Notes under the pieces: generated by a model
Databases searched by the model: none
Told to the model about the DNA's origin: nothing
The model's input: only the letters and a program-made list of their open reading frames with translations
In this document: one piece after another, positions 21,540-58,868 of the stretch
How the letters are laid out: each line of letters starts with the position of its first letter
How positions within the stretch are numbered: position 1 is the stretch's first letter
Made by a program: the position numbers and the translations under genes
Source of the DNA: Candidatus Moraniibacteriota bacterium
GTDB lineage: Bacteria > Patescibacteriota > Minisyncoccia > Moranbacterales > UBA2206
Direction of reading: 5' to 3'
Assembly (NCBI GenBank): GCA_030645735.1
Contig: JAUSNP010000005.1
Coordinates: forward strand, 72,151 to 136,150
DNA length: 64,000 nt

Positions 21540-21674
21540 AAAAGACAAATTTCATATAGAATAAATATAATATCCGTAGACAGTAGGCATCCATAAGCCC
21601 TACCGAGGAAGGCCAAAGTGGCTTTTTAGTCTGCGATCAAACGCAGATTTTAATTTTTTAAAGGCACTATCAAT
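21540..21674 (+). promoter_or_regulatory. Candidate structured ribosomal-protein L10 leader (autoregulatory 5' UTR of rplJ-rplL)
   Basis: 135-nt untranslated region with hairpins gcc-aaagt-ggc+TTTTT and tctgcg-atcaaa-cgcaga+TTTT directly before rplJ; position matches known L10-leader regulation in other bacteria. Confidence 0.4.
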
Positions 21675-27543: not shown

Positions 27544-27592
27544 AATTTAAAAGCGCCCTTGAGGGGCGCCTTTAAATTTAATTGGGTTGGGG
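27544..27592. repeat. 49-bp direct repeat, copy B, abutting the tRNA-Gln 3' end
   Basis: Near-identical to 26021-26069; the last bases overlap the acceptor 3' end of the minus-strand tRNA. Confidence 0.7.
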
Positions 27593-27658
27593 AGGAGGGA
27601 TTCGGACCCCCGGATGCATGGACCAAAACCATGTGCCTTACCACTTGGCTACTCCCCA
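27587..27658 (-). tRNA. tRNA-Gln (anticodon UUG inferred)
   Basis: Reverse complement TGGGGAGTAGCCAAGTGGTAAGGCACATGGTTTTGGTCCATGCATCCGGGGGTCCGAATCCCTCCTCCCCA folds as a cloverleaf: 7-bp acceptor, D-loop AAGTGGTAA, anticodon stem CATGG/CCATG with loop UUUUGGU, T-arm GGGGG-UCCGAAU-CCCUC. The T-loop is slightly atypical (C55). Confidence 0.6.
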
Positions 27659-27782
27659 ATGTAATAAAATTCGAAATTCGAACATCGAAATTCGAGACAA
27701 TATCTAATATTAAAATTTTAAATAATTAAACAATTCTGTATCTTTTGAATTTGTTTCGGATTTCTTATTTCGTGCTTTGAAT

Positions 27783-40954: not shown

Positions 40955-41029
40955 GCCGCCATCGTCTAGCCCGGTCAGGACGCCAGGTTCTCATCCTGGA
41001 AATCAGGGGTTCGAATCCCCTTGGCGGTA
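40955..41029 (+). tRNA. tRNA-Glu (anticodon CUC)
   Basis: GCCGCCATCGTCTAGCCCGGTCAGGACGCCAGGTTCTCATCCTGGAAATCAGGGGTTCGAATCCCCTTGGCGGTA: 7-bp acceptor, Glu-type D-arm TCGTCTAG, anticodon loop TTCTCAT, T-loop GGTTCGAATCC. Confidence 0.8.
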
Positions 41030-41053
41030 CTTTTAAAAATAATTTCAAACTTT

Positions 41054-49154: not shown

Positions 49155-50060
49155 ATGGCGCATGTAACTCGGCAGTTGATAAGAGGTATCAAGTTAGGCG
49201 ATAAACTATCTATAAATCAGCATAACCAAGAAGGTGGTAGTCCATATGCCTTGCCTGATATGTTACGCAAGGCTTATCTGGATGCGGGCTATGGGGATTT
49301 GCCAACCAATCGAGATGAGGCAGTTGATCGGGGGGCAAAAACATGGAATGGAGCGCAGGTAGCCATTAATAAACTGGCTGTTGTAGACGGTGTAATTCAC
49401 GGGAATTTGGTGACTTTACCCTGGATGTACTCCCAGGCGATGAACGATTTGTACAACATGCGTATGCCCAACACTTTGTTGGCTCGCATAAGTCCAAATT
49501 TTCTCCACGTATCGCTCTTGGCGCAGGTTATGTACAAGGGAGCGTTGTGCCTGGTAGGGCAGGTTCGCGGAGATGTCATCGGTAAAGGTGAATTGCAAAC
49601 AGCATTATGTGCTGGGAGCATGAACAAGGCGTGTGCCATTGCCGGTGACGACATGATTATACAGGGACTGGAAGATAATCTGATGCGTGAAATCGGACTC
49701 AATCTCGGCTGTCTCAATATCAAGCCGGGAAAGATTCTCTTTCATGAACCAGAAGTCGGCCGCGTCAATCTGGCCAGTGTGTCAGAAGTATATGACTTCG
49801 AGCATGTAAGGATGGTTTTTCAAGCCCATCATGACTCTATGGTCACTAGTGGCAGCAAGCCGGAATGTGCTAGGCTGGCACTAATACCGGTAGCGACTGA
49901 TCCGTTTAATGTGGTTTGCGACAATGGCGACTCGCGGAGATATGTTGCGAAAGCCATTGAATTTTACGACCCGATAACAAAGGATTTCGGGGTTGCGGAT
50001 TTTCTTTGCCGATATCTCACGCAGGCAGTTATAGATCATCTGATCGAAGCTGACCTGTAG
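49155..50060 (+). CDS. Hypothetical protein (orphan, GC-elevated, own promoter and terminator)
   Basis: 301 aa; SD GGAGAGG; about 50% GC; no recognisable domain; 7 Cys. Confidence 0.5.
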   Translation: MAHVTRQLIRGIKLGDKLSINQHNQEGGSPYALPDMLRKAYLDAGYGDLPTNRDEAVDRGAKTWNGAQVAINKLAVVDGVIHGNLVTLPWMYSQAMNDLYNMRMPNTLLARISPNFLHVSLLAQVMYKGALCLVGQVRGDVIGKGELQTALCAGSMNKACAIAGDDMIIQGLEDNLMREIGLNLGCLNIKPGKILFHEPEVGRVNLASVSEVYDFEHVRMVFQAHHDSMVTSGSKPECARLALIPVATDPFNVVCDNGDSRRYVAKAIEFYDPITKDFGVADFLCRYLTQAVIDHLIEADL

Positions 50061-50083: not shown

Positions 50084-50130
50084 AATCCTCCTGGTTTACG
50101 GTATTCCGTAAATCAGGAGGATTTTTTTTA
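50084..50130 (+). terminator. Strong nested intrinsic terminator after the 49155 ORF
   Basis: AATCCTCCTG-gtttacggtattccgtaaat-CAGGAGGATT followed by T8. Confidence 0.7.
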
Positions 50131-51145: not shown

Positions 51146-51175
51146 TTGACAAACACATCCATTGTGTGGTAATAT
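51146..51175 (+). promoter_or_regulatory. Sigma70-type promoter (TTGACA-18-TAATAT) upstream of the 51206 gene
   Basis: cttgacaaacacatccattgtgtggtaatat. Confidence 0.4.
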
Positions 51176-51205
51176 GGTTTGAACTAAAAAATATAACATT
51201 TACAT

Positions 51206-52264
51206 ATGAAAAAAGGCAACAAATCAAGCGAAAACACAACAAAAGGCTCAATGCCGAGCTTCTTTGAATTGGCCAATTCTTTGTTGGCAAATTTGCCACA
51301 ACGATCACAAGAAATTGTGAAAAAGCGCTTTGGCTTGGTGGATGGCCGAGCGGAAACTCTGGAAAAAATCGGTCAAGACTATGACATCACTCGTGAGCGA
51401 GTGCGTCAAATTATTGCAGATGCGATCAAGAAGATTTCCAAATATTCTGATATGGAAGCTTTTCGTGAGGCGGAAGAGAAAATAGTTTTTGCAATCAGTC
51501 AAAGAGATGGTATAATAAATGAAGAAAAGTTGATTGAGGATTTGGGTTTCGACCATCCAGGCGAAGCTAACTCAGTTGTATTTTTTGCGGTTTGTTCAAA
51601 CAAGATTATTGAAATTGAAGAAAAAGGATCTTTGAAAAAATCACGCGCTCTTTCCAATGATATTTTGATCAAGGTGGCAGATACGGCTGAAGCAGCCAAA
51701 CATGTTTTGACTGCCGCAGGAACCCCGCTGACTGATGATGAAATCGCACATGAAATTGGCAAGAAAAAAGGTGAATTGAGCAAGAGCGAGATCTTGAATT
51801 TCTTGAGCATTCTTTCAAACATTTCAAAAAATAAATTTGGCAAATGGGGTTTCACCAATTGGATGGAAATCAATCCAAAAGGAACTCGCGAGCGAATTTA
51901 TTTGGTTTTGAAAGAACACAAAAAATCTTTGCATTTCACGGAAATCGCCAAAATTATTGATGATTTGGGAATCAGCAAGAGGAAGTCTCACCCACAAACA
52001 GTCCACAATGAATTGATCAAGGATGATAGATTTGTGTTGATTGGCCGAGGGACTTATGCCTTGCGTGAATGGGGATATTCTCCAGGTGCCATCAAGGATG
52101 TTTTGGAAGATATTTTGAAAAAGAGCGGACGACATATGAGCAAGGATGAGATTCTGGAAGAAGTGGCAAAATTGCGCAAGGTCAAAAAAACAACTGTGAT
52201 GATAAACTTGAATAACAACGCTAAATTTGAAAAACACGGTGACAAATATGCTTGGAAAGCATAA
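51206..52264 (+). CDS. Sigma-70 region-4-like HTH plus HARE-HTH domain protein (putative DNA-binding regulator)
   Basis: N-terminal LPQRSQEIVKKRFGL...TLEKIGQDYDITRERVRQIIADAIKKI (region-4 HTH); C-terminal KSLHFTEIAKIID...RFVLIGRGTYALREWGY, resembling the HARE-HTH seen in RpoE-delta proteins; 352 aa. Confidence 0.55.
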   Translation: MKKGNKSSENTTKGSMPSFFELANSLLANLPQRSQEIVKKRFGLVDGRAETLEKIGQDYDITRERVRQIIADAIKKISKYSDMEAFREAEEKIVFAISQRDGIINEEKLIEDLGFDHPGEANSVVFFAVCSNKIIEIEEKGSLKKSRALSNDILIKVADTAEAAKHVLTAAGTPLTDDEIAHEIGKKKGELSKSEILNFLSILSNISKNKFGKWGFTNWMEINPKGTRERIYLVLKEHKKSLHFTEIAKIIDDLGISKRKSHPQTVHNELIKDDRFVLIGRGTYALREWGYSPGAIKDVLEDILKKSGRHMSKDEILEEVAKLRKVKKTTVMINLNNNAKFEKHGDKYAWKA

Positions 52265-52315
52265 TTGCAATCACCAAATCTTTGTATAAGCACAAAAAAA
52301 TAAAAAAAAGTTAAT

Positions 52316-53569
52316 TTGCAACGACAAATGACTGAACAAATTGAAATCATAAAAAGCATCCTGCAACCACTTGCCCAATTTTGGTGGCTAATATTGCCGG
52401 TACTTTTTTATTATGTCTTTTATCTGATTTGGATGGATTTTGTGATGGATAATTGGTCAGGTAAACAAGAGTGGACAATTATTGAACTTATTCCACCTAA
52501 GGACTTAGAGAAAGGCCCTAAACCGATGGAGTCTGTGTATCATGGCTTGATGGGTTCAGTAAAGAGTTATCATGCAGTAGAGGAATTTGTCTATGGTATG
52601 GATACAGACAAATTCAGTTTTGAGCTGGTTGGTTTGGGCGGAGAAGTCCATTTTTATGTCAGGGTGCAGAAATATCTGCGAGTCTTTTTGGAATCGCAAA
52701 TTTATGCTCAATATCCGGGAATTGAAATTTTAGAAGTGCCAGATTATATGGATAATTTTCCAAAGATTGCGCCGAATCGCGATTGGAAAGTGTGGGGATC
52801 AGATTTGATTTTAGTTGCTGATGATGCGATTCCAATCAGAACTTATGACAAATTTGAAGAAGATATCACCGGCACTATGATTGATCCGTTGGCTGCTTAT
52901 ATCGAGCTCTTTGCTTCTTTGCCACCTGGACAAAATATTCTATTGCAACATATCGTAAAACCTTTACCCGAAGCTTGGATAAAAAAAGAGAGAAAAAAAT
53001 TGATAGATAAATTGGCTGGCCGAACATCCTCTTCATCAAAAAGTGTTTGGCAACATTTTCTGGAAGTGTTTGTTTATATGCCAGCTGGCTTGCTGGGCTT
53101 AGTGGAATTTCCAACAGAGACCAAGAAAGAACAACAGCCCCTAGCCTTCCGTTTGACTCCAGGTGAACAAGAGCAATTGAAAGCCATCGAAGAAAATATG
53201 GGTAAAACCATGTATAAAGTGAAAATACGCTTTGTGTGTATTGGAAAGAAAGAAGGATTCGACATGGCCAATGTTGGCGGATTTTTTGGTGTGATGCGTC
53301 AATTCGGTGATTTAAATTTGAATACTCTCAAACCGGATAAAACCAAAACTTCAGCCTATTTCATCAATATAGAGGCCAGAGGTTTAGCGATGAAGAGAAG
53401 GTTGCTGAATCGTTATCGCAAGAGAAATACGGATGGTAACAATGTGATTCTTTCGTCCTCAGAATTGGCAACTTTGTATCATATTCCCGATATGGGAGTT
53501 ATGACGCCAGCTTTGCCAAGAGTTGAATCTAAAAAGGGCACGGCGCCTTCTAATTTGCCTATCGGGTGA
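52316..53569 (+). CDS. Hypothetical membrane-anchored protein (N-terminal TM, large soluble domain)
   Basis: 417 aa; TM FWWLILPVLFYYVFYLIWM; co-directional with and immediately upstream of the FtsK/HerA-superfamily ATPase gene. Confidence 0.5.
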   Translation: MQRQMTEQIEIIKSILQPLAQFWWLILPVLFYYVFYLIWMDFVMDNWSGKQEWTIIELIPPKDLEKGPKPMESVYHGLMGSVKSYHAVEEFVYGMDTDKFSFELVGLGGEVHFYVRVQKYLRVFLESQIYAQYPGIEILEVPDYMDNFPKIAPNRDWKVWGSDLILVADDAIPIRTYDKFEEDITGTMIDPLAAYIELFASLPPGQNILLQHIVKPLPEAWIKKERKKLIDKLAGRTSSSSKSVWQHFLEVFVYMPAGLLGLVEFPTETKKEQQPLAFRLTPGEQEQLKAIEENMGKTMYKVKIRFVCIGKKEGFDMANVGGFFGVMRQFGDLNLNTLKPDKTKTSAYFINIEARGLAMKRRLLNRYRKRNTDGNNVILSSSELATLYHIPDMGVMTPALPRVESKKGTAPSNLPIG

Positions 53570-53681
53570 TGATATAAATCGCAAATCAATCACGAATCTT
53601 TCCCGAATGATCACGAATGAAATCTGAAAAATTAGAGATTATTAGAGTTTAATTAGTGTAATATTAGAGATTTATAACATC

Positions 53682-55664
53682 ATGCCAGAAATAAATTTTT
53701 TTGCTAAAACTAATTTCAGAAATCAGGAAGTGAGCTTCGGTATCAAGCGCGATGATCGAAGGCGGCACATGTATGTGATTGGAAAGACTGGAATGGGAAA
53801 ATCTAATCTTTTGGAGAATATGGCTATTCAGGATATTCGCAATGGCGAAGGTGTTTGTGTAGTTGATCCGCACGGTGAGTTTGCGGAAAAGATGTTGCAA
53901 GCAGTGCCAGCGGAGCGCATCAACGATGTAGTCTATTTCAATCCGTCGGATGCGGAATTTCCAATCGCTTTCAACATTTTGGAATCAGTGGCGGATGATA
54001 AGAAAAATCTCGTGGCTTCCGGTATGATGGGCGTGTTCAAAAAGATTTGGCCGGATGTGTGGAGCGCTCGAATGGAATATATTTTGAGCAATACAATTTT
54101 GGCACTTTTGGATTTTCCGGGTTCAACTATGCTGGGAGTGAATCGCATGATGTCTGACAAAGATTTTAGAAAACGAGTCTATCCAAAAATCAAAGATCCA
54201 GTGGTAAAATCTTTTTGGCTCAATGAGTTTGACAAGTGGGAGGATAAGTTTCGAAAAGAAGCGGTGGCAGCTATTCAAAACAAAGTCGGACAGTTTTTAT
54301 CTTCTTCAGTCATTCGCCATATTGTGGGGCAACCAAAATCGACCATTGATATGCGTGACATTATGGACAATCAAAAAATCTTGATTGTGAATTTGTCCAA
54401 AGGTCGGATTGGTGAAGACTCGATGCGACTTTTGGGTGGAATGCTGATCACAAAAATTCAGTTGGCAGCTATGAGTCGTGTAGATATGCCAGAGGAAGAC
54501 AGAGTAGATTTTTATTTATATGTGGATGAATTCCAAAACTTTGCCACAGAATCTTTTGCTAACATTTTGTCTGAAGCCAGAAAATATAAATTGAATCTGA
54601 TTTTGGCGCATCAATATATCAATCAGTTGATTTTTGATGGCAATGCCACGGTGCGTGACGCTGTGTTTGGCAATGTGGGAACGATTGTGTCTTTCCGTGT
54701 GGGCGCGGAAGATGCGGAAGCCTTGGAGAAGGAATTTGAGCCAGTTTTCATGATGAATGATATTGTGAATCTTTCTAAATATCACATCTATCTGAAATTG
54801 ATGATTGATGGCGTGGCAGGGGATGCTTTTTCAGCCACAACTTTGCCTCCACTTGATCTGACTGGAACAAGTGGCAATGAAGAAAAAATTATTCGCGTGA
54901 CACGGGAGAAATGTGGCCGGCCAAAAAGTGAGGTGGAGGATCGCATTGCTCGCTGGAGTGGTATGGAAGTTTTCAAAGAAGCACCCGCTGGTGGACAAGA
55001 AGAGGCTGATGATATGGATTCAGAATTGTATGAAGGACCAAGCGTGACAATTGAACCGCCTCCAGCTTCAACCCCAACGCTTATTTTTAGACCAACCAAT
55101 CCGCCGGTTGAGTCACCAGTTATTCGACCAGTAGTGACTCCAGTAGCAAGACCAATCGCTGTGCCTGTCGCTCAAAAGTCAGTAGCTCCGGTAGCAAAGA
55201 CTGTTGTGCAAACAGCAGTGTCTGCCACAATGCAAAAAATTGAATCGGCATTGAGTCAACCATCTGCACCAGCTGAGGTTGCAGTTGAAAAACCAAAGGA
55301 AATGTATTCAACTATTTGCGCGACTTGTGAAGAAATAATTACGGTGCCGTTCAAACCAGATCCCGCCCGTCCAGCTTTTTGTCGAGAGTGCTTGAAAGAG
55401 CATCAGCGCATGATGGCCAGAAAGAAAAATGAATTGGCGGAACAACAAGCTCCAGCAGTGCGAGTGAATCCAATTGTGGCTAAGATTGAACCAGAAAAAA
55501 ACATTGCGCCAGAATCACAGCGAGTGGTGCATGCTCCGCAAGACAAGCCGATGAGCCTGTCTCAAATGTCTCACATTGCTCCCAAAGCTTTCCGTTCACA
55601 AAAGCAAAAGCCAGACCTGGGCGCAATCCGAAGCATCATTCAGGAGGCTAGAACTGAGAAATAG
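53682..55664 (+). CDS. FtsK/HerA/VirD4(TraG)-superfamily P-loop ATPase with a Pro/Val-rich linker and C-terminal CxxC...CxxC zinc ribbon
   Basis: Walker A YVIGKTGMGKSNLLE, Walker B FYLYVDEFQNFA; C-terminus CATCEEIITVPFKPDPARPAFCRECL; 660 aa. Confidence 0.65.
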   Translation: MPEINFFAKTNFRNQEVSFGIKRDDRRRHMYVIGKTGMGKSNLLENMAIQDIRNGEGVCVVDPHGEFAEKMLQAVPAERINDVVYFNPSDAEFPIAFNILESVADDKKNLVASGMMGVFKKIWPDVWSARMEYILSNTILALLDFPGSTMLGVNRMMSDKDFRKRVYPKIKDPVVKSFWLNEFDKWEDKFRKEAVAAIQNKVGQFLSSSVIRHIVGQPKSTIDMRDIMDNQKILIVNLSKGRIGEDSMRLLGGMLITKIQLAAMSRVDMPEEDRVDFYLYVDEFQNFATESFANILSEARKYKLNLILAHQYINQLIFDGNATVRDAVFGNVGTIVSFRVGAEDAEALEKEFEPVFMMNDIVNLSKYHIYLKLMIDGVAGDAFSATTLPPLDLTGTSGNEEKIIRVTREKCGRPKSEVEDRIARWSGMEVFKEAPAGGQEEADDMDSELYEGPSVTIEPPPASTPTLIFRPTNPPVESPVIRPVVTPVARPIAVPVAQKSVAPVAKTVVQTAVSATMQKIESALSQPSAPAEVAVEKPKEMYSTICATCEEIITVPFKPDPARPAFCRECLKEHQRMMARKKNELAEQQAPAVRVNPIVAKIEPEKNIAPESQRVVHAPQDKPMSLSQMSHIAPKAFRSQKQKPDLGAIRSIIQEARTEK

Positions 55665-55893
55665 TAAAAATGTTGCTTGTATAACTCAAAAACCCTGCAC
55701 TGGCAGGGTTTTTGGCTTAAATAGGTCGTATTATCGCCGTGACCTTGACTTTTATATTAAAATGTGCTAGTATTCACAATTAGTACATTAACAACCACCA
55801 CCTATGTGGCAATAAGCAGATTAGGCTCGACCTAGTCTTTTTGTTGCCACAGTTGGGTGGTTAGAAGTTAAAAAGATATTTTAGGAGAGAAAG

Positions 55894-56571
55894 ATGAAAA
55901 AGTTGAGTGTTGTATCTATATTGGCAATGGCTTTGGCTTTGGTGGGAATGATTGCTTCTTCGGCACTTGCCGACGGAGCGGACATTCTTCCCTGGTCATA
56001 TCCGAATGGCCAGGAGGGACAGACTTTTGCCTTCGGTATTTCCCAGAAGATTTCCAATCCACAAATAAGAATCAATGTCGGAGGCGGGAATCGCAAGAGT
56101 GTCTCCGCCGTTACGCTTGATGAGGACAATTGGGCGGAGGTGTCAATCCTTAAAGAGGGTGCGTATAATATTCGCGTCACTGTAAAGGGTGAAGAGCAAC
56201 TCACTCAAAACCTTTCTCGGAGCGTGCATGTGCACATTGAATACCCAGTCAAAGTGGGTAAGGTGTATTTCCGAGATCATTATCGGATGCACCTCGCCAA
56301 TGGCAACATCGGCTACACCTTTATGGTTTATCCGCAGTTCGGCTACGAGATGCCGGATCGCATCGACGCCGAGGTTACTTTTGGCGATGTGATTAAGGAA
56401 GTCTCTTTCAGCTGCGGACAGAACTACATCCGCAACCAGGGGTATTGCGAGACTAACATCGTCGAGCTCACCCCGAGTGAATATGTAGAGGTGTTGGGTG
56501 AAACCTACACCTGTTTAAAAACTGATGAAACGGAAAGCTGTCAAAACATCCGTTTTGTCAATTTCCAATAA
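55894..56571 (+). CDS. Secreted hypothetical protein (signal peptide; 4 C-terminal Cys)
   Basis: MKKLSVVSILAMALALVGMIASSALA signal; SD AGGAGAG; about 50% GC; no known domain. Confidence 0.5.
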   Translation: MKKLSVVSILAMALALVGMIASSALADGADILPWSYPNGQEGQTFAFGISQKISNPQIRINVGGGNRKSVSAVTLDEDNWAEVSILKEGAYNIRVTVKGEEQLTQNLSRSVHVHIEYPVKVGKVYFRDHYRMHLANGNIGYTFMVYPQFGYEMPDRIDAEVTFGDVIKEVSFSCGQNYIRNQGYCETNIVELTPSEYVEVLGETYTCLKTDETESCQNIRFVNFQ

Positions 56572-57939: not shown

Positions 57940-58566
57940 ATGGGAATATTATTTAATAGAAAATCAGCAGCAGGCTTTACTACAAATAAGAAATTTTTAG
58001 CAGCTAATGAATTACATAGGAAGGACATTAAAGAAATTAGTCGTAATGTTGGAATTCATAAGATAGCTGGCCAGCATGAGTTCAAGAAAATGCTAACAGA
58101 AAGTCGGCATGGTGGAGTGACGCGAGATGAGATTCATGATAATTTGCAAAAATTGATCGGAGAGGGTTATATCAAAACTACATCTCAGGCCAGAGGAATT
58201 GCCAGTGATTTGGGGTTGAAAGGACGAAGCTTGTTGAAATTTAAAAACCTACATAATTATTTACGCTCAGAAAGAGCGGTTGTGGGAAAGAGTGTTGAAA
58301 TGACAGGCGGAAATAATGAGGCACTCCATAAGGAAGTCGTCAGCAATAATAATCATCCAGCTATAAAAAGTAATTTGGGGCCAATAATTCCAGAAAAAAA
58401 GATTGTGCAACCTTCAGCACCAACAAATTTGCAATTCAAGTCATTTCAGAATCCTTCGGTTGGAATGACGGAGGGTTTTGAGGTTAGCAATGGCAGGCCA
58501 AAAAGTGTTTGGGATATTTTGAATAAATCTAGAGTGCATGAATCAGAGGATGAAACTAATAGTTAA
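57940..58566 (+). CDS. Hypothetical protein
   Basis: 208-aa ORF, AT-rich like the core genome; no motif. Confidence 0.4.
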   Translation: MGILFNRKSAAGFTTNKKFLAANELHRKDIKEISRNVGIHKIAGQHEFKKMLTESRHGGVTRDEIHDNLQKLIGEGYIKTTSQARGIASDLGLKGRSLLKFKNLHNYLRSERAVVGKSVEMTGGNNEALHKEVVSNNNHPAIKSNLGPIIPEKKIVQPSAPTNLQFKSFQNPSVGMTEGFEVSNGRPKSVWDILNKSRVHESEDETNS

Positions 58567-58586
58567 TTTCCATAAATTTTTTTAAT

Positions 58587-58868
58587 ATGCAAGATTATAA
58601 TAATCAAGGCAATCAATCAGAACAAGACAAGCGTCGAAAATTGACTGACATTCAAAGAAATATTATTATGGCGGAAGCGGATTTGAAAAAAGTGACTAAT
58701 GAAAAAATGATGATTGAGTCTGCGATGTCACGCACAAAAAGAGAGATCGATCATCTGAAATTAGGCATGCAGGCAGAGGAACAGAAATTAAAGAAGATTG
58801 AGCAGGATATGATGATGAAACAAGTTGAAATTTCTAAATTGAAAAAGCAATTAAATTCGGTGCAATAA
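58587..58868 (+). CDS. Hypothetical coiled-coil protein
   Basis: 93 aa, heptad-rich (KLKKIEQDMMMKQVEISKLKKQL). Confidence 0.35.
   Translation: MQDYNNQGNQSEQDKRRKLTDIQRNIIMAEADLKKVTNEKMMIESAMSRTKREIDHLKLGMQAEEQKLKKIEQDMMMKQVEISKLKKQLNSVQ

Follow-up and report, generated by a model that had tools for sequence, protein, structure and literature searches.

Why would a bacterium of the Candidate Phyla Radiation (CPR) carry, amid housekeeping genes and away from any type IV secretion system (T4SS), an ATPase resembling the coupling proteins of such systems, and what would the two genes that precede it have to do with that ATPase? The question is raised by a stretch of 64,000 nucleotides from a Candidatus Moraniibacteriota genome (contig JAUSNP010000005.1, positions 72,151 to 136,150; the whole stretch is called the window below), in which three consecutive genes, designated P1, P2 and P3, form a compact module. 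A first-pass annotation made from the DNA letters had described them as a promoter-led, co-directional set encoding a sigma-region-4/HARE-HTH protein, a membrane protein and an ATPase. On the whole that description holds, with minor corrections, and its interpretation is supported in part. All three are indeed open reading frames (ORFs) on the + strand, with the following layout, and P3 is 100% identical to an NCBI protein of a Candidatus Moranbacteria metagenome-assembled genome.

51206-52264, + strand: P1, 352 aa, sigma-70 region 4 plus three HARE-HTH-like winged-helix modules (residues about 160-225, 228-292 and 293-352)
52316-53569, + strand: P2, 417 aa, transmembrane (TM) anchor plus DUF8128, the detached N-terminal half of the ATPase
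53682-55664, + strand: P3, 660 aa, ATPase with linker, zinc finger and tail
53682-55001, + strand: P3 motor core, residues 1-440, a VirD4/TrwB-type P-loop ATPase devoid of TM segments
53781-53804 and 54516-54533, + strand: Walker A and Walker B of P3, respectively
55002-55295, + strand: P3 linker rich in Pro/Val/Ala, residues about 440-538
55296-55403, + strand: P3 treble-clef zinc finger CxxC-x17-CxxC, residues 539-574
55404-55664, + strand: P3 C-terminal tail, in which a motif is conserved (KPMSLSQMSHIAPK.F...)

As judged by comparison with homologues, P2 and P3 are the two halves of one protein, split here and fused in relatives, and the view that both belong, as subunits, to one coupling-type ATPase anchored in the membrane is firmly supported. 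Metagenome contigs were scanned for the invariant Walker B peptide DFYLYVDE, which gave an arbitrary sample of 120 loci whose ORFs were searched with hidden Markov models built for P1, P2 and P3. Among the 122 P3-type cores recovered, 47 carried DUF8128 directly N-terminal in the same ORF and 18 were preceded by a separate, adjacent P2 ORF; apart from the stand-alone forms weighed further below, the remaining cores were cut by contig ends. Six fused proteins are colinear with the window across the P2 stop and the P3 start, the P2 tail (ELAS.YHLP...KKGEPPSNLPI) being followed by 6-8 residues and then by the P3 head (TNFR...FGIKRDDRRRHMY.IGK.G.GKS). The best 120 database matches to one fused protein measure 864-1249 aa; every one of them carries PF26449 (DUF8128) and all but three PF10412, with PF12846 present in a few fused relatives, and the named matches belonged to Patescibacteria, CPR2, Howlettbacteria and one 'WS5' genome. 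When the cores were clustered at 50% identity, the group containing the window P3 was found to hold 21 fused and 14 split forms. P2, initially taken for a separate, domainless membrane protein, is better described as the detached N-terminal half of an ATPase that many relatives keep in one piece.

The same clustering separated a paralogue group that is always fused, with ~790 aa and ~42% identity to the window P3, and another formed by a short stand-alone form of ~495 aa. The existence of several paralogue groups agrees with a recent survey of the phylum, which reports about two coupling-type genes in each genome (PMC12102498). In seven loci (L161, L188, L178, L102, L130, L129 and L191) two ATPase paralogues lie side by side, several of these pairs consisting of the always-fused form (~790-840 aa) followed by a fused orthologue of the window type, and in L130 the order is P1, P2, a 222-aa ORF, a short 447-aa ATPase and P3. 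Such neighbouring paralogues may work together. The ORFs upstream of 'P3-only' loci were considered as divergent versions of P2 and rejected, for they encode DnaK, AlaS or an unrelated zinc-ribbon protein and gave a probability of 0.1 with hhalign against DUF8128.

P2 contains one hydrophobic segment, at residues 19-44, in agreement with the single N-terminal TM helix of the first-pass annotation. Direct scans of P2 with local copies of Pfam, NCBIfam and PADLOC gave no match, in the case of Pfam because the local copy predates PF26449. The best 120 P2 homologues listed all carry the precomputed PF26449, that is, DUF8128, which makes the initial verdict of 'no known domain' outdated, and a P2 profile search of 1.84 billion representative proteins retrieved 2,782 clusters at E <= 1e-3. 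A literature search found no paper containing 'DUF8128'. Since P2 homologues of 412-413 aa align from Met5, the true start of P2 is probably ATG 52328 and the listed TTG 52316 appears doubtful. The AlphaFold2 (AF2) model of P2 has a predicted local distance difference test score (pLDDT) of 76.5 and a predicted template modelling score of 0.73. Compared with the PDB by Foldseek, it matched 13 chains at E <= 1e-3 and one more at 5.5e-3, each of them full-length TrwK, the VirB4 protein of R388, and matched neither the VirB4 C-terminal domain alone nor other P-loop proteins. Because only the full-length protein was hit, the part of VirB4 that the P2 model resembles is most likely the N-terminal domain.

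The Walker A (GKTGMGKS, residue 34) and Walker B (LYVDEF, residue 279) motifs of P3 were located as first annotated, and no TM segment was found. The proposed VirD4/TraG/HerA affiliation was borne out by Pfam matches to TrwB_AAD_bind (1e-11), DUF87 and T4SS-DNA_transf, to which zf_Tbcl_2 is added at residues 539-574. The values obtained with PF10412 (1e-11), PF02534 (1e-6) and TIGR03743 (9e-15) are all under the NCBIfam full-length cut-offs, and TraG-D_C, the 'TraM recognition site', was matched weakly. TrwB (1.3e-6) and DotL (5e-4) were the best PDB matches by sequence. In a fold ranking of the low-confidence P3 model, the top 18 positions were occupied by TrwB, DotL and Cagbeta; the VirB4 C-terminal domain 4ag6 ranked 20th (E 9.5e-3), and this domain and HerA came about four orders of magnitude behind the leading group. 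With P2 matching TrwK by fold and P3 matching TrwB, DotL and Cagbeta, the modelled enzyme would join a VirB4-like front half to a VirD4-like motor.

The region that follows the core was described in the first-pass annotation as a Pro/Val/Ala-rich linker ending in a CxxC-x19-CxxC ribbon. The linker is present, varies in length and sequence among homologues and has a model pLDDT < 50; the terminal zinc motif exists too, with a spacing of x17 instead of x19. Its four cysteines (C546, C549, C567 and C570) are invariant in 27 homologues and the finger matches zf_Tbcl_2 (5.6e-11) and TIGR04272 (3.4e-12), zinc binding having been shown for this CxxC-x17-CxxC domain type in small proteins of Methanosarcina (PMC12704099). 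The finger is found exclusively in non-fused forms, being carried by 9/18 split and 6/18 stand-alone ATPases and by 0/47 fused ones. In the tail, Q628, P634 and F637 are invariant, and the segment could be viewed as a putative partner-docking site.

Comparison with known systems places the enzyme between two ATPase families. With type IV coupling proteins (T4CPs; VirD4, TrwB, TraD, DotL and Cagbeta), P3 shares the Walker motifs, the PF10412 match and the best sequence and fold matches. Helices predicted at residues 105-230, between Walker A and B, may correspond to the all-helical insertion of these proteins, in a model of mean pLDDT 51. It differs from them in lacking an N-terminal TM segment of its own, the anchor being provided in trans by P2 in the window and in cis in fused relatives, and in the ~370-residue DUF8128 domain, found in P2 or in the fused region and absent from the classical proteins. 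It also differs in its C-terminal zinc finger, in not being linked to relaxase or T4SS genes, and in being chromosomal, vertically inherited and very highly conserved. VirB4 (TrwK of R388; sometimes fused to VirB3) appears to have in common with the fused relatives a layout of membrane anchor, N-terminal alpha/beta domain and FtsK/HerA-superfamily ATPase, in that same order. However, the P3 half is closer to VirD4, neither P2 nor P3 matches CagE_TrbE_VirB or AAA_10 of Pfam at E <= 0.1, no VirB3, VirB6 or VirB8 neighbours occur, and the likeness between P2 and VirB4 is one of fold comparison only. For TraI/TraJ of pIP501 (PMC12857230), a separately encoded membrane protein is likewise proposed to anchor a coupling ATPase to the cytoplasmic membrane; yet TraI is small, has two TM helices and belongs to a plasmid transfer operon, whereas P2, with 413-417 aa, contains an extensive soluble domain that is conserved, and in many relatives forms one protein with the motor.

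The third component, P1, combines a sigma-70 region 4 helix-turn-helix (Sigma70_r4, residues 26-78, E 7e-14) and a HARE-HTH domain (residues 231-289, E 3e-19), both as first annotated. Segments 160-225 and 293-352, when scanned alone, gave weak HARE-HTH matches (5e-4 and 4e-3), indicating that P1 consists of sigma region 4 followed by three winged-helix modules. In primary sigma factors the region 4.2 helix reads the -35 element, and in P1 this helix, TRERVRQI, is at least 95% conserved across 101 homologues. The P1 N-terminus matches region 4 of primary sigma factors at ~1e-15 (NCBIfam); sigma regions 2 and 3 were not matched, region 4 standing alone (residues 21-87) with all sigma models far under their cut-offs. 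Devoid of sigma regions 2 and 3, P1 cannot be a sigma factor on its own. The central HARE-HTH passes the TIGR04567 cut-off (45.9 vs 42) of the RNA polymerase delta subunit (RpoE). In contrast to the delta subunit, the P1 domain is not N-terminal, there are three tandem winged helices, and the C-terminus (…KFEKHGDKYAWKA) is not acidic, the acidic tail belonging to delta. No paper joining HARE-HTH with Patescibacteria was found in a literature search.

The three genes constitute a true module, conserved over much of the CPR. With the P2 profile, 80 loci from species representatives were recovered, and wherever the sequence reaches, every one of them keeps the P1-P2-P3 order; the flanks vary. Median identity of these representatives to the window is 65% for P3, 51% for P1 and 46% for P2, the values for AlaS and MnmA being 51% and 50%. 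Five more distant Parcubacteria loci have unrelated flanking genes; the trio is kept in 4/5 of them, with P2 29-38%, P1 ~32% and the P3 core 61-68% identical to the window. Three further loci, from an unlabelled lineage, CPR2 and a WS5-labelled genome, have TopA, P1 and the fused ATPase in this order, with FtsQ-MurG-FtsW-MraY convergent downstream; P1 and the ATPase overlap by 4 nt in the first, are 3 nt apart in the second and 88 nt apart in the third, where DprA is found further upstream. The remaining sizeable window ORFs with a family match are all housekeeping: GatB, MiaB, ThrRS, DnaE, SMC, DnaX, RsmH, FtsI, a Mur ligase, thioredoxin and its reductase, malic enzyme, MltG, MnmA, AlaRS, FtsA, RNase HII and III, and thymidylate kinase. 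Taken together, a vertically inherited core-genome feature, widespread in CPR, is firmly supported over an accessory island, mobile element or defence island.

Two side observations concern this distribution. The TopA-P1-ATPase order is common to four distant CPR lineages (L211, L212, L213 and Southlakia epibionticum, SEML1_0293-0298), two of them with DprA upstream. In addition, several records with Moranbacteria-like gene content that carry the module (L006, L017, L018, L079 and others) are titled 'uncultured Bdellovibrionales' or 'Micavibrio sp.' and are probably mislabelled.

Two published data sets bear on what the module may do. The Patescibacteria survey of Quinonero-Coronel et al. 2025 (PMC12102498) reports VirD4-type coupling-protein homologues in 2,918 of 3,035 genomes and VirB4 in 2,417, only 148 of 5,713 coupling-type genes being near virB4, and counts 109 relaxases in the 3,035 genomes; its authors write that exaptation of these T4CP homologues 'cannot be ruled out'. 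The orphan homologues of that survey are the same gene class as P3, and the passages searched make no mention of the DUF8128 half, of split and fused forms, of paralogue classes or of a sigma4/HARE-HTH neighbour. The kind of ATPase is already known, its two-part architecture is unreported, and the sigma4/HARE-HTH protein is its constant partner.

The second data set concerns S. epibionticum (Wang et al. 2023, PMC10633639 and its supplement). SEML1_0294, named 'RpoS', is a protein of 349 aa in which Sigma70_r4 spans 27-72 and HARE-HTH 225-283; it was independently assigned one tri-helical and three winged domains, and was essential at all time points by transposon sequencing (Tn-seq). Directly downstream lies SEML1_0293, of 921 aa and with a TrwB-type domain at 402-719, which leaves an N-terminal extension of ~380 residues as in the fused forms; its reads drop from 5,817 to 2,940 and then to 1,372 over the time course, those of its neighbours staying flat. 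TopA and DprA are found just upstream of the pair, an arrangement also seen in the CPR2 and WS5 loci. Also essential in S. epibionticum are another coupling-like protein, SEML1_0142 (1,019 aa), the T4SS and a canonical FtsK with 4TM, alpha, motor and gamma domains (PMC10633639).

From these data, the explanation that we favour, with a confidence only slightly better than even, is that P2 and P3 constitute a membrane-anchored ring ATPase of the VirD4/TrwB lineage to which P1 brings DNA or the transcription machinery, and that the module works independently of a T4SS gene cluster. In this model the N-terminal half of the enzyme, composed of one TM helix and DUF8128 with a predicted VirB4-N-terminal-like fold, has become a separate gene in the window's lineage, and P2 would tether the soluble P3 motor to the cytoplasmic membrane. 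P3 is presumably hexameric and would thread or pull nucleic acid with ATP; putative DNA translocation by the module is a reasonable inference. P1 has four tandem DNA-binding modules, including a region 4.2 helix that retains the residues for -35 recognition, and its most likely task would be to deliver DNA or the transcription machinery to the motor, or to position them there. The data show how P2 and P3 are split or fused, what domains the three proteins contain, how they are conserved and ordered, and that T4SS neighbours are absent; the hexamer, the nucleic acid substrate, a contact of P1 with the motor and the cellular role are put forward as conjecture.

Several observations weigh against this explanation. 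The trio is not universal, for 18 of the 122 sampled cores are complete but without P2 within 1.2 kb, and P1 was found upstream of fused forms in only 2/31 cases with room overall and in 2/12 of those in the window's own cluster. The resemblance of P2 to TrwK comes with low TM-scores (0.27-0.37, best E 5.6e-6); Pfam and NCBIfam scans of all 30 members of the P2 alignment gave only noise at E <= 10, and a P2 profile search of PDB sequences gave no match. The charges flanking the TM segment of P2 do not settle its membrane topology, and the AF2 model of P3, built from 27 close homologues, is poor (mean pLDDT 51) and serves for ranking only. Finally, SEML1_0293 was scored non-essential by Tn-seq and SEML1_0294 essential (PMC10633639), which means that P1 must act beyond serving the motor; here SEML1_0293 is taken as the probable counterpart of a fused P2 and P3 with DUF8128, as suggested by its length and the position of its ATPase domain. 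For P1, a role of its own in general DNA binding or in association with RNA polymerase seems most likely.

Among the competing explanations, the one that survives best has the module encode, away from the virB4 cluster, the coupling protein of the CPR T4SS, which would bring DNA or protein substrates to that machine, P1 taking the part of a TraM/TrwA-type relaxosome accessory protein; we regard it as conceivable, although on the unlikely side. A P3 motor of VirD4/TrwB type and the weak TraG-D_C match would suit such a function, and according to the survey coupling genes are often far from virB4 and most Patescibacteria have a T4SS (PMC12102498). The same survey, however, places coupling-type genes in ~500 more genomes than VirB4, with 97% of them not near virB4, and finds relaxases to be almost absent. 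Moreover, the T4SS of S. epibionticum is essential and the ATPase beside the P1-like gene is not, the essential paralogue SEML1_0142 being a better candidate for T4SS partner; and the constant neighbour of the module is P1, never a T4SS gene. In the whole 64 kb, the ORFs with 180 aa or more include no relaxase, pilus/pilin, VirB4, VirB6 or other VirB gene, and no relaxase or T4SS channel gene was found among the called genes of 13 related loci. The absence of relaxase, pilus and T4SS genes claimed in the first-pass annotation was seen again, and its view that this is not a conjugation system agrees with a module placed outside any conjugation or T4SS gene cluster. That annotation had contrasted its reading with a ubiquitous, already annotated CPR component accompanied by VirB genes: the ATPase type is ubiquitous in the surveyed genomes and annotated as T4SS coupling-type, but the accompanying VirB genes are missing, as few coupling genes are near virB4 and none is here.

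A bolder form of the favoured explanation would be a CPR-specific machine, so far without described counterpart, in which an essential P1 binds promoter-like DNA or RNA polymerase and is coupled to a membrane-tethered VirB4-like/VirD4-like motor working on the cell's own chromosome or transcripts. We consider this version unlikely. If true, a CPR-specific machine would act at the membrane without any secretion system, and its motor family would form a branch of its own, the third after VirB4 and VirD4.

Less probable still is a division-associated chromosome translocase operating alongside FtsK, in the way that SftA accompanies SpoIIIE in Bacillus, with P1 standing in for the DNA recognition of FtsK gamma. 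The architecture of membrane anchor, ring motor and winged-helix DNA binder would be appropriate, and the module is repeatedly seen at the edge of the division/cell-wall cluster: in the unlabelled lineage, CPR2 and the WS5-labelled genome it lies between TopA and DprA upstream and the convergent FtsQ-MurG-FtsW-MraY genes, in S. epibionticum TopA and DprA are also just upstream, and in the window RsmH, FtsI and Mur genes are upstream and FtsA downstream. This proximity may nevertheless reflect inherited gene order only: the flanks are wholly different in other Parcubacteria, and the convergent orientation means that the division genes and the module are not co-transcribed. Furthermore, P3 has no FtsK_SpoIIIE profile match (PF01580, PF13491 and PF09397, corresponding to the FtsK motor, 4TM and gamma domains, all gave no match), and in S. 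epibionticum the canonical FtsK is essential and SEML1_0293 non-essential. The presence of that FtsK also led to the rejection of the idea that the module replaces it.

A function in anti-phage or anti-plasmid defence, with P3 as a HerA/mad8-like motor or the HARE-HTH domains of P1 as sensors of modified DNA, had been among the options of the first-pass annotation and is now very unlikely. HARE-HTH domains are generally known from restriction and modification contexts, the best PADLOC match of P3 is the mad8 profile of MADS (1e-17), followed by weaker HerA matches, and the sigma4 part of P1 matches the MzaA profile, over region 4 only. But the module occupies a core-genome site among housekeeping genes with gene order and inheritance that look vertical, its ATPase core is more conserved than AlaRS, nearly all surveyed genomes of the phylum carry this type of gene, and no nuclease, methylase, SIR2 or other effector adjoins it, nor were other mad or Mza genes present. 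A mad8 identity for P3 was accordingly rejected; the MADS preprint text gives no mad8 domain information.

Last, the idea of a decayed remnant of an integrated conjugative element, for which the family likeness between P3 and conjugative coupling proteins is the sole argument, is barely credible given the uniform GC content (0.39-0.43 in the module vs 0.38-0.45 across the window), the lack of integrase, relaxase or flanking repeats at the module borders, the intact reading frames under strong purifying selection and an orthologous locus in more than 80 species.

The module matters in several respects. Much of bacterial diversity belongs to the CPR, whose members have tiny genomes, and coupling-type ATPases occur in 96% of the Patescibacteria genomes surveyed. 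P3 changes more slowly than tRNA synthetases and must therefore do something important. The problem now has a shape, with a DUF8128 second half that is either fused or split, a frequent DNA-binding partner and distinct paralogue classes. The module is also tied to S. epibionticum, the one genetically tractable CPR organism, where the finding of an essential partner and a non-essential motor makes specific experiments possible. In addition, a VirB4-like N-terminal domain joined to a VirD4-like motor in one protein would bear on how both ATPase families diverged.

The signals around and within the module are the following.

51146-51175, + strand: sigma-70-type promoter-like site TTGACA-18-TG-n-TAATAT, 31 nt 5' of the P1 start
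53588-53618, + strand: C(A/C)CGAAT x3, between P2 and P3
53631-53669, + strand: ATTAG(A/T)G x4, between P2 and P3, repeat spacing 10-11 bp
55686-55715, + strand: terminator-like hairpin 3' of P3 that closes the module, -23.1 kcal/mol, z -4.9, 0/200 shuffles folding as well

The promoter lead of the first-pass annotation corresponds to the first of these sites, a consensus match that scores 10/12 plus the TG extension in a region holding 24 such promoter-like sites vs 15.3 expected by chance. An Rfam scan gave no match inside or beside the module. The direct repeats noted earlier before the ATPase gene, ATTAGAG x3 and ATCACGAAT x2, are both present between P2 and P3: ATTAGAG has 4 copies in the whole window, 3 of them within the 39 bp at 53631-53669, where the near-copy ATTAGTG is the fourth unit. 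L078 and L006, the two closest relatives, also have repeats of CGAAT/TTCGAA type, which are not seen further out, and the P2-P3 gap ranges among relatives from 3 to 556 nt (median 61), with many gaps of only 3-30 nt. A family-wide operator was rejected on these grounds, and the intergenic repeats are a lineage-specific feature.

Other elements of the window deserve a brief record. Downstream of the module, a long imperfect hairpin at 55797-55861 (and 55745-55773; -42.9 kcal/mol, z -7.1), without Rfam match, sits between a promoter-like site and a 225-aa ORF (55894-56571) that matches nothing in Pfam and whose N-terminus is signal-peptide-like; a leader or an attenuator might be represented by this hairpin. 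Upstream, a 301-aa ORF without Pfam match (49155-50060) lies in a slightly GC-richer stretch; on its 3' side comes a very strong terminator hairpin, whose stem measures 18 bp (50084-50123). Between MnmA and AlaRS (57940-58868) there are two ORFs without family match, of 208 aa and 93 aa, the latter resembling a coiled coil, and relatives carry small unannotated genes at the same position. The window also contains a ribosomal protein L10 leader at 21556-21662 (45 bits vs a gathering score of 44), and the genes for tRNA-Gln, at 27583-27659 (-), and tRNA-Glu, at 40955-41030.

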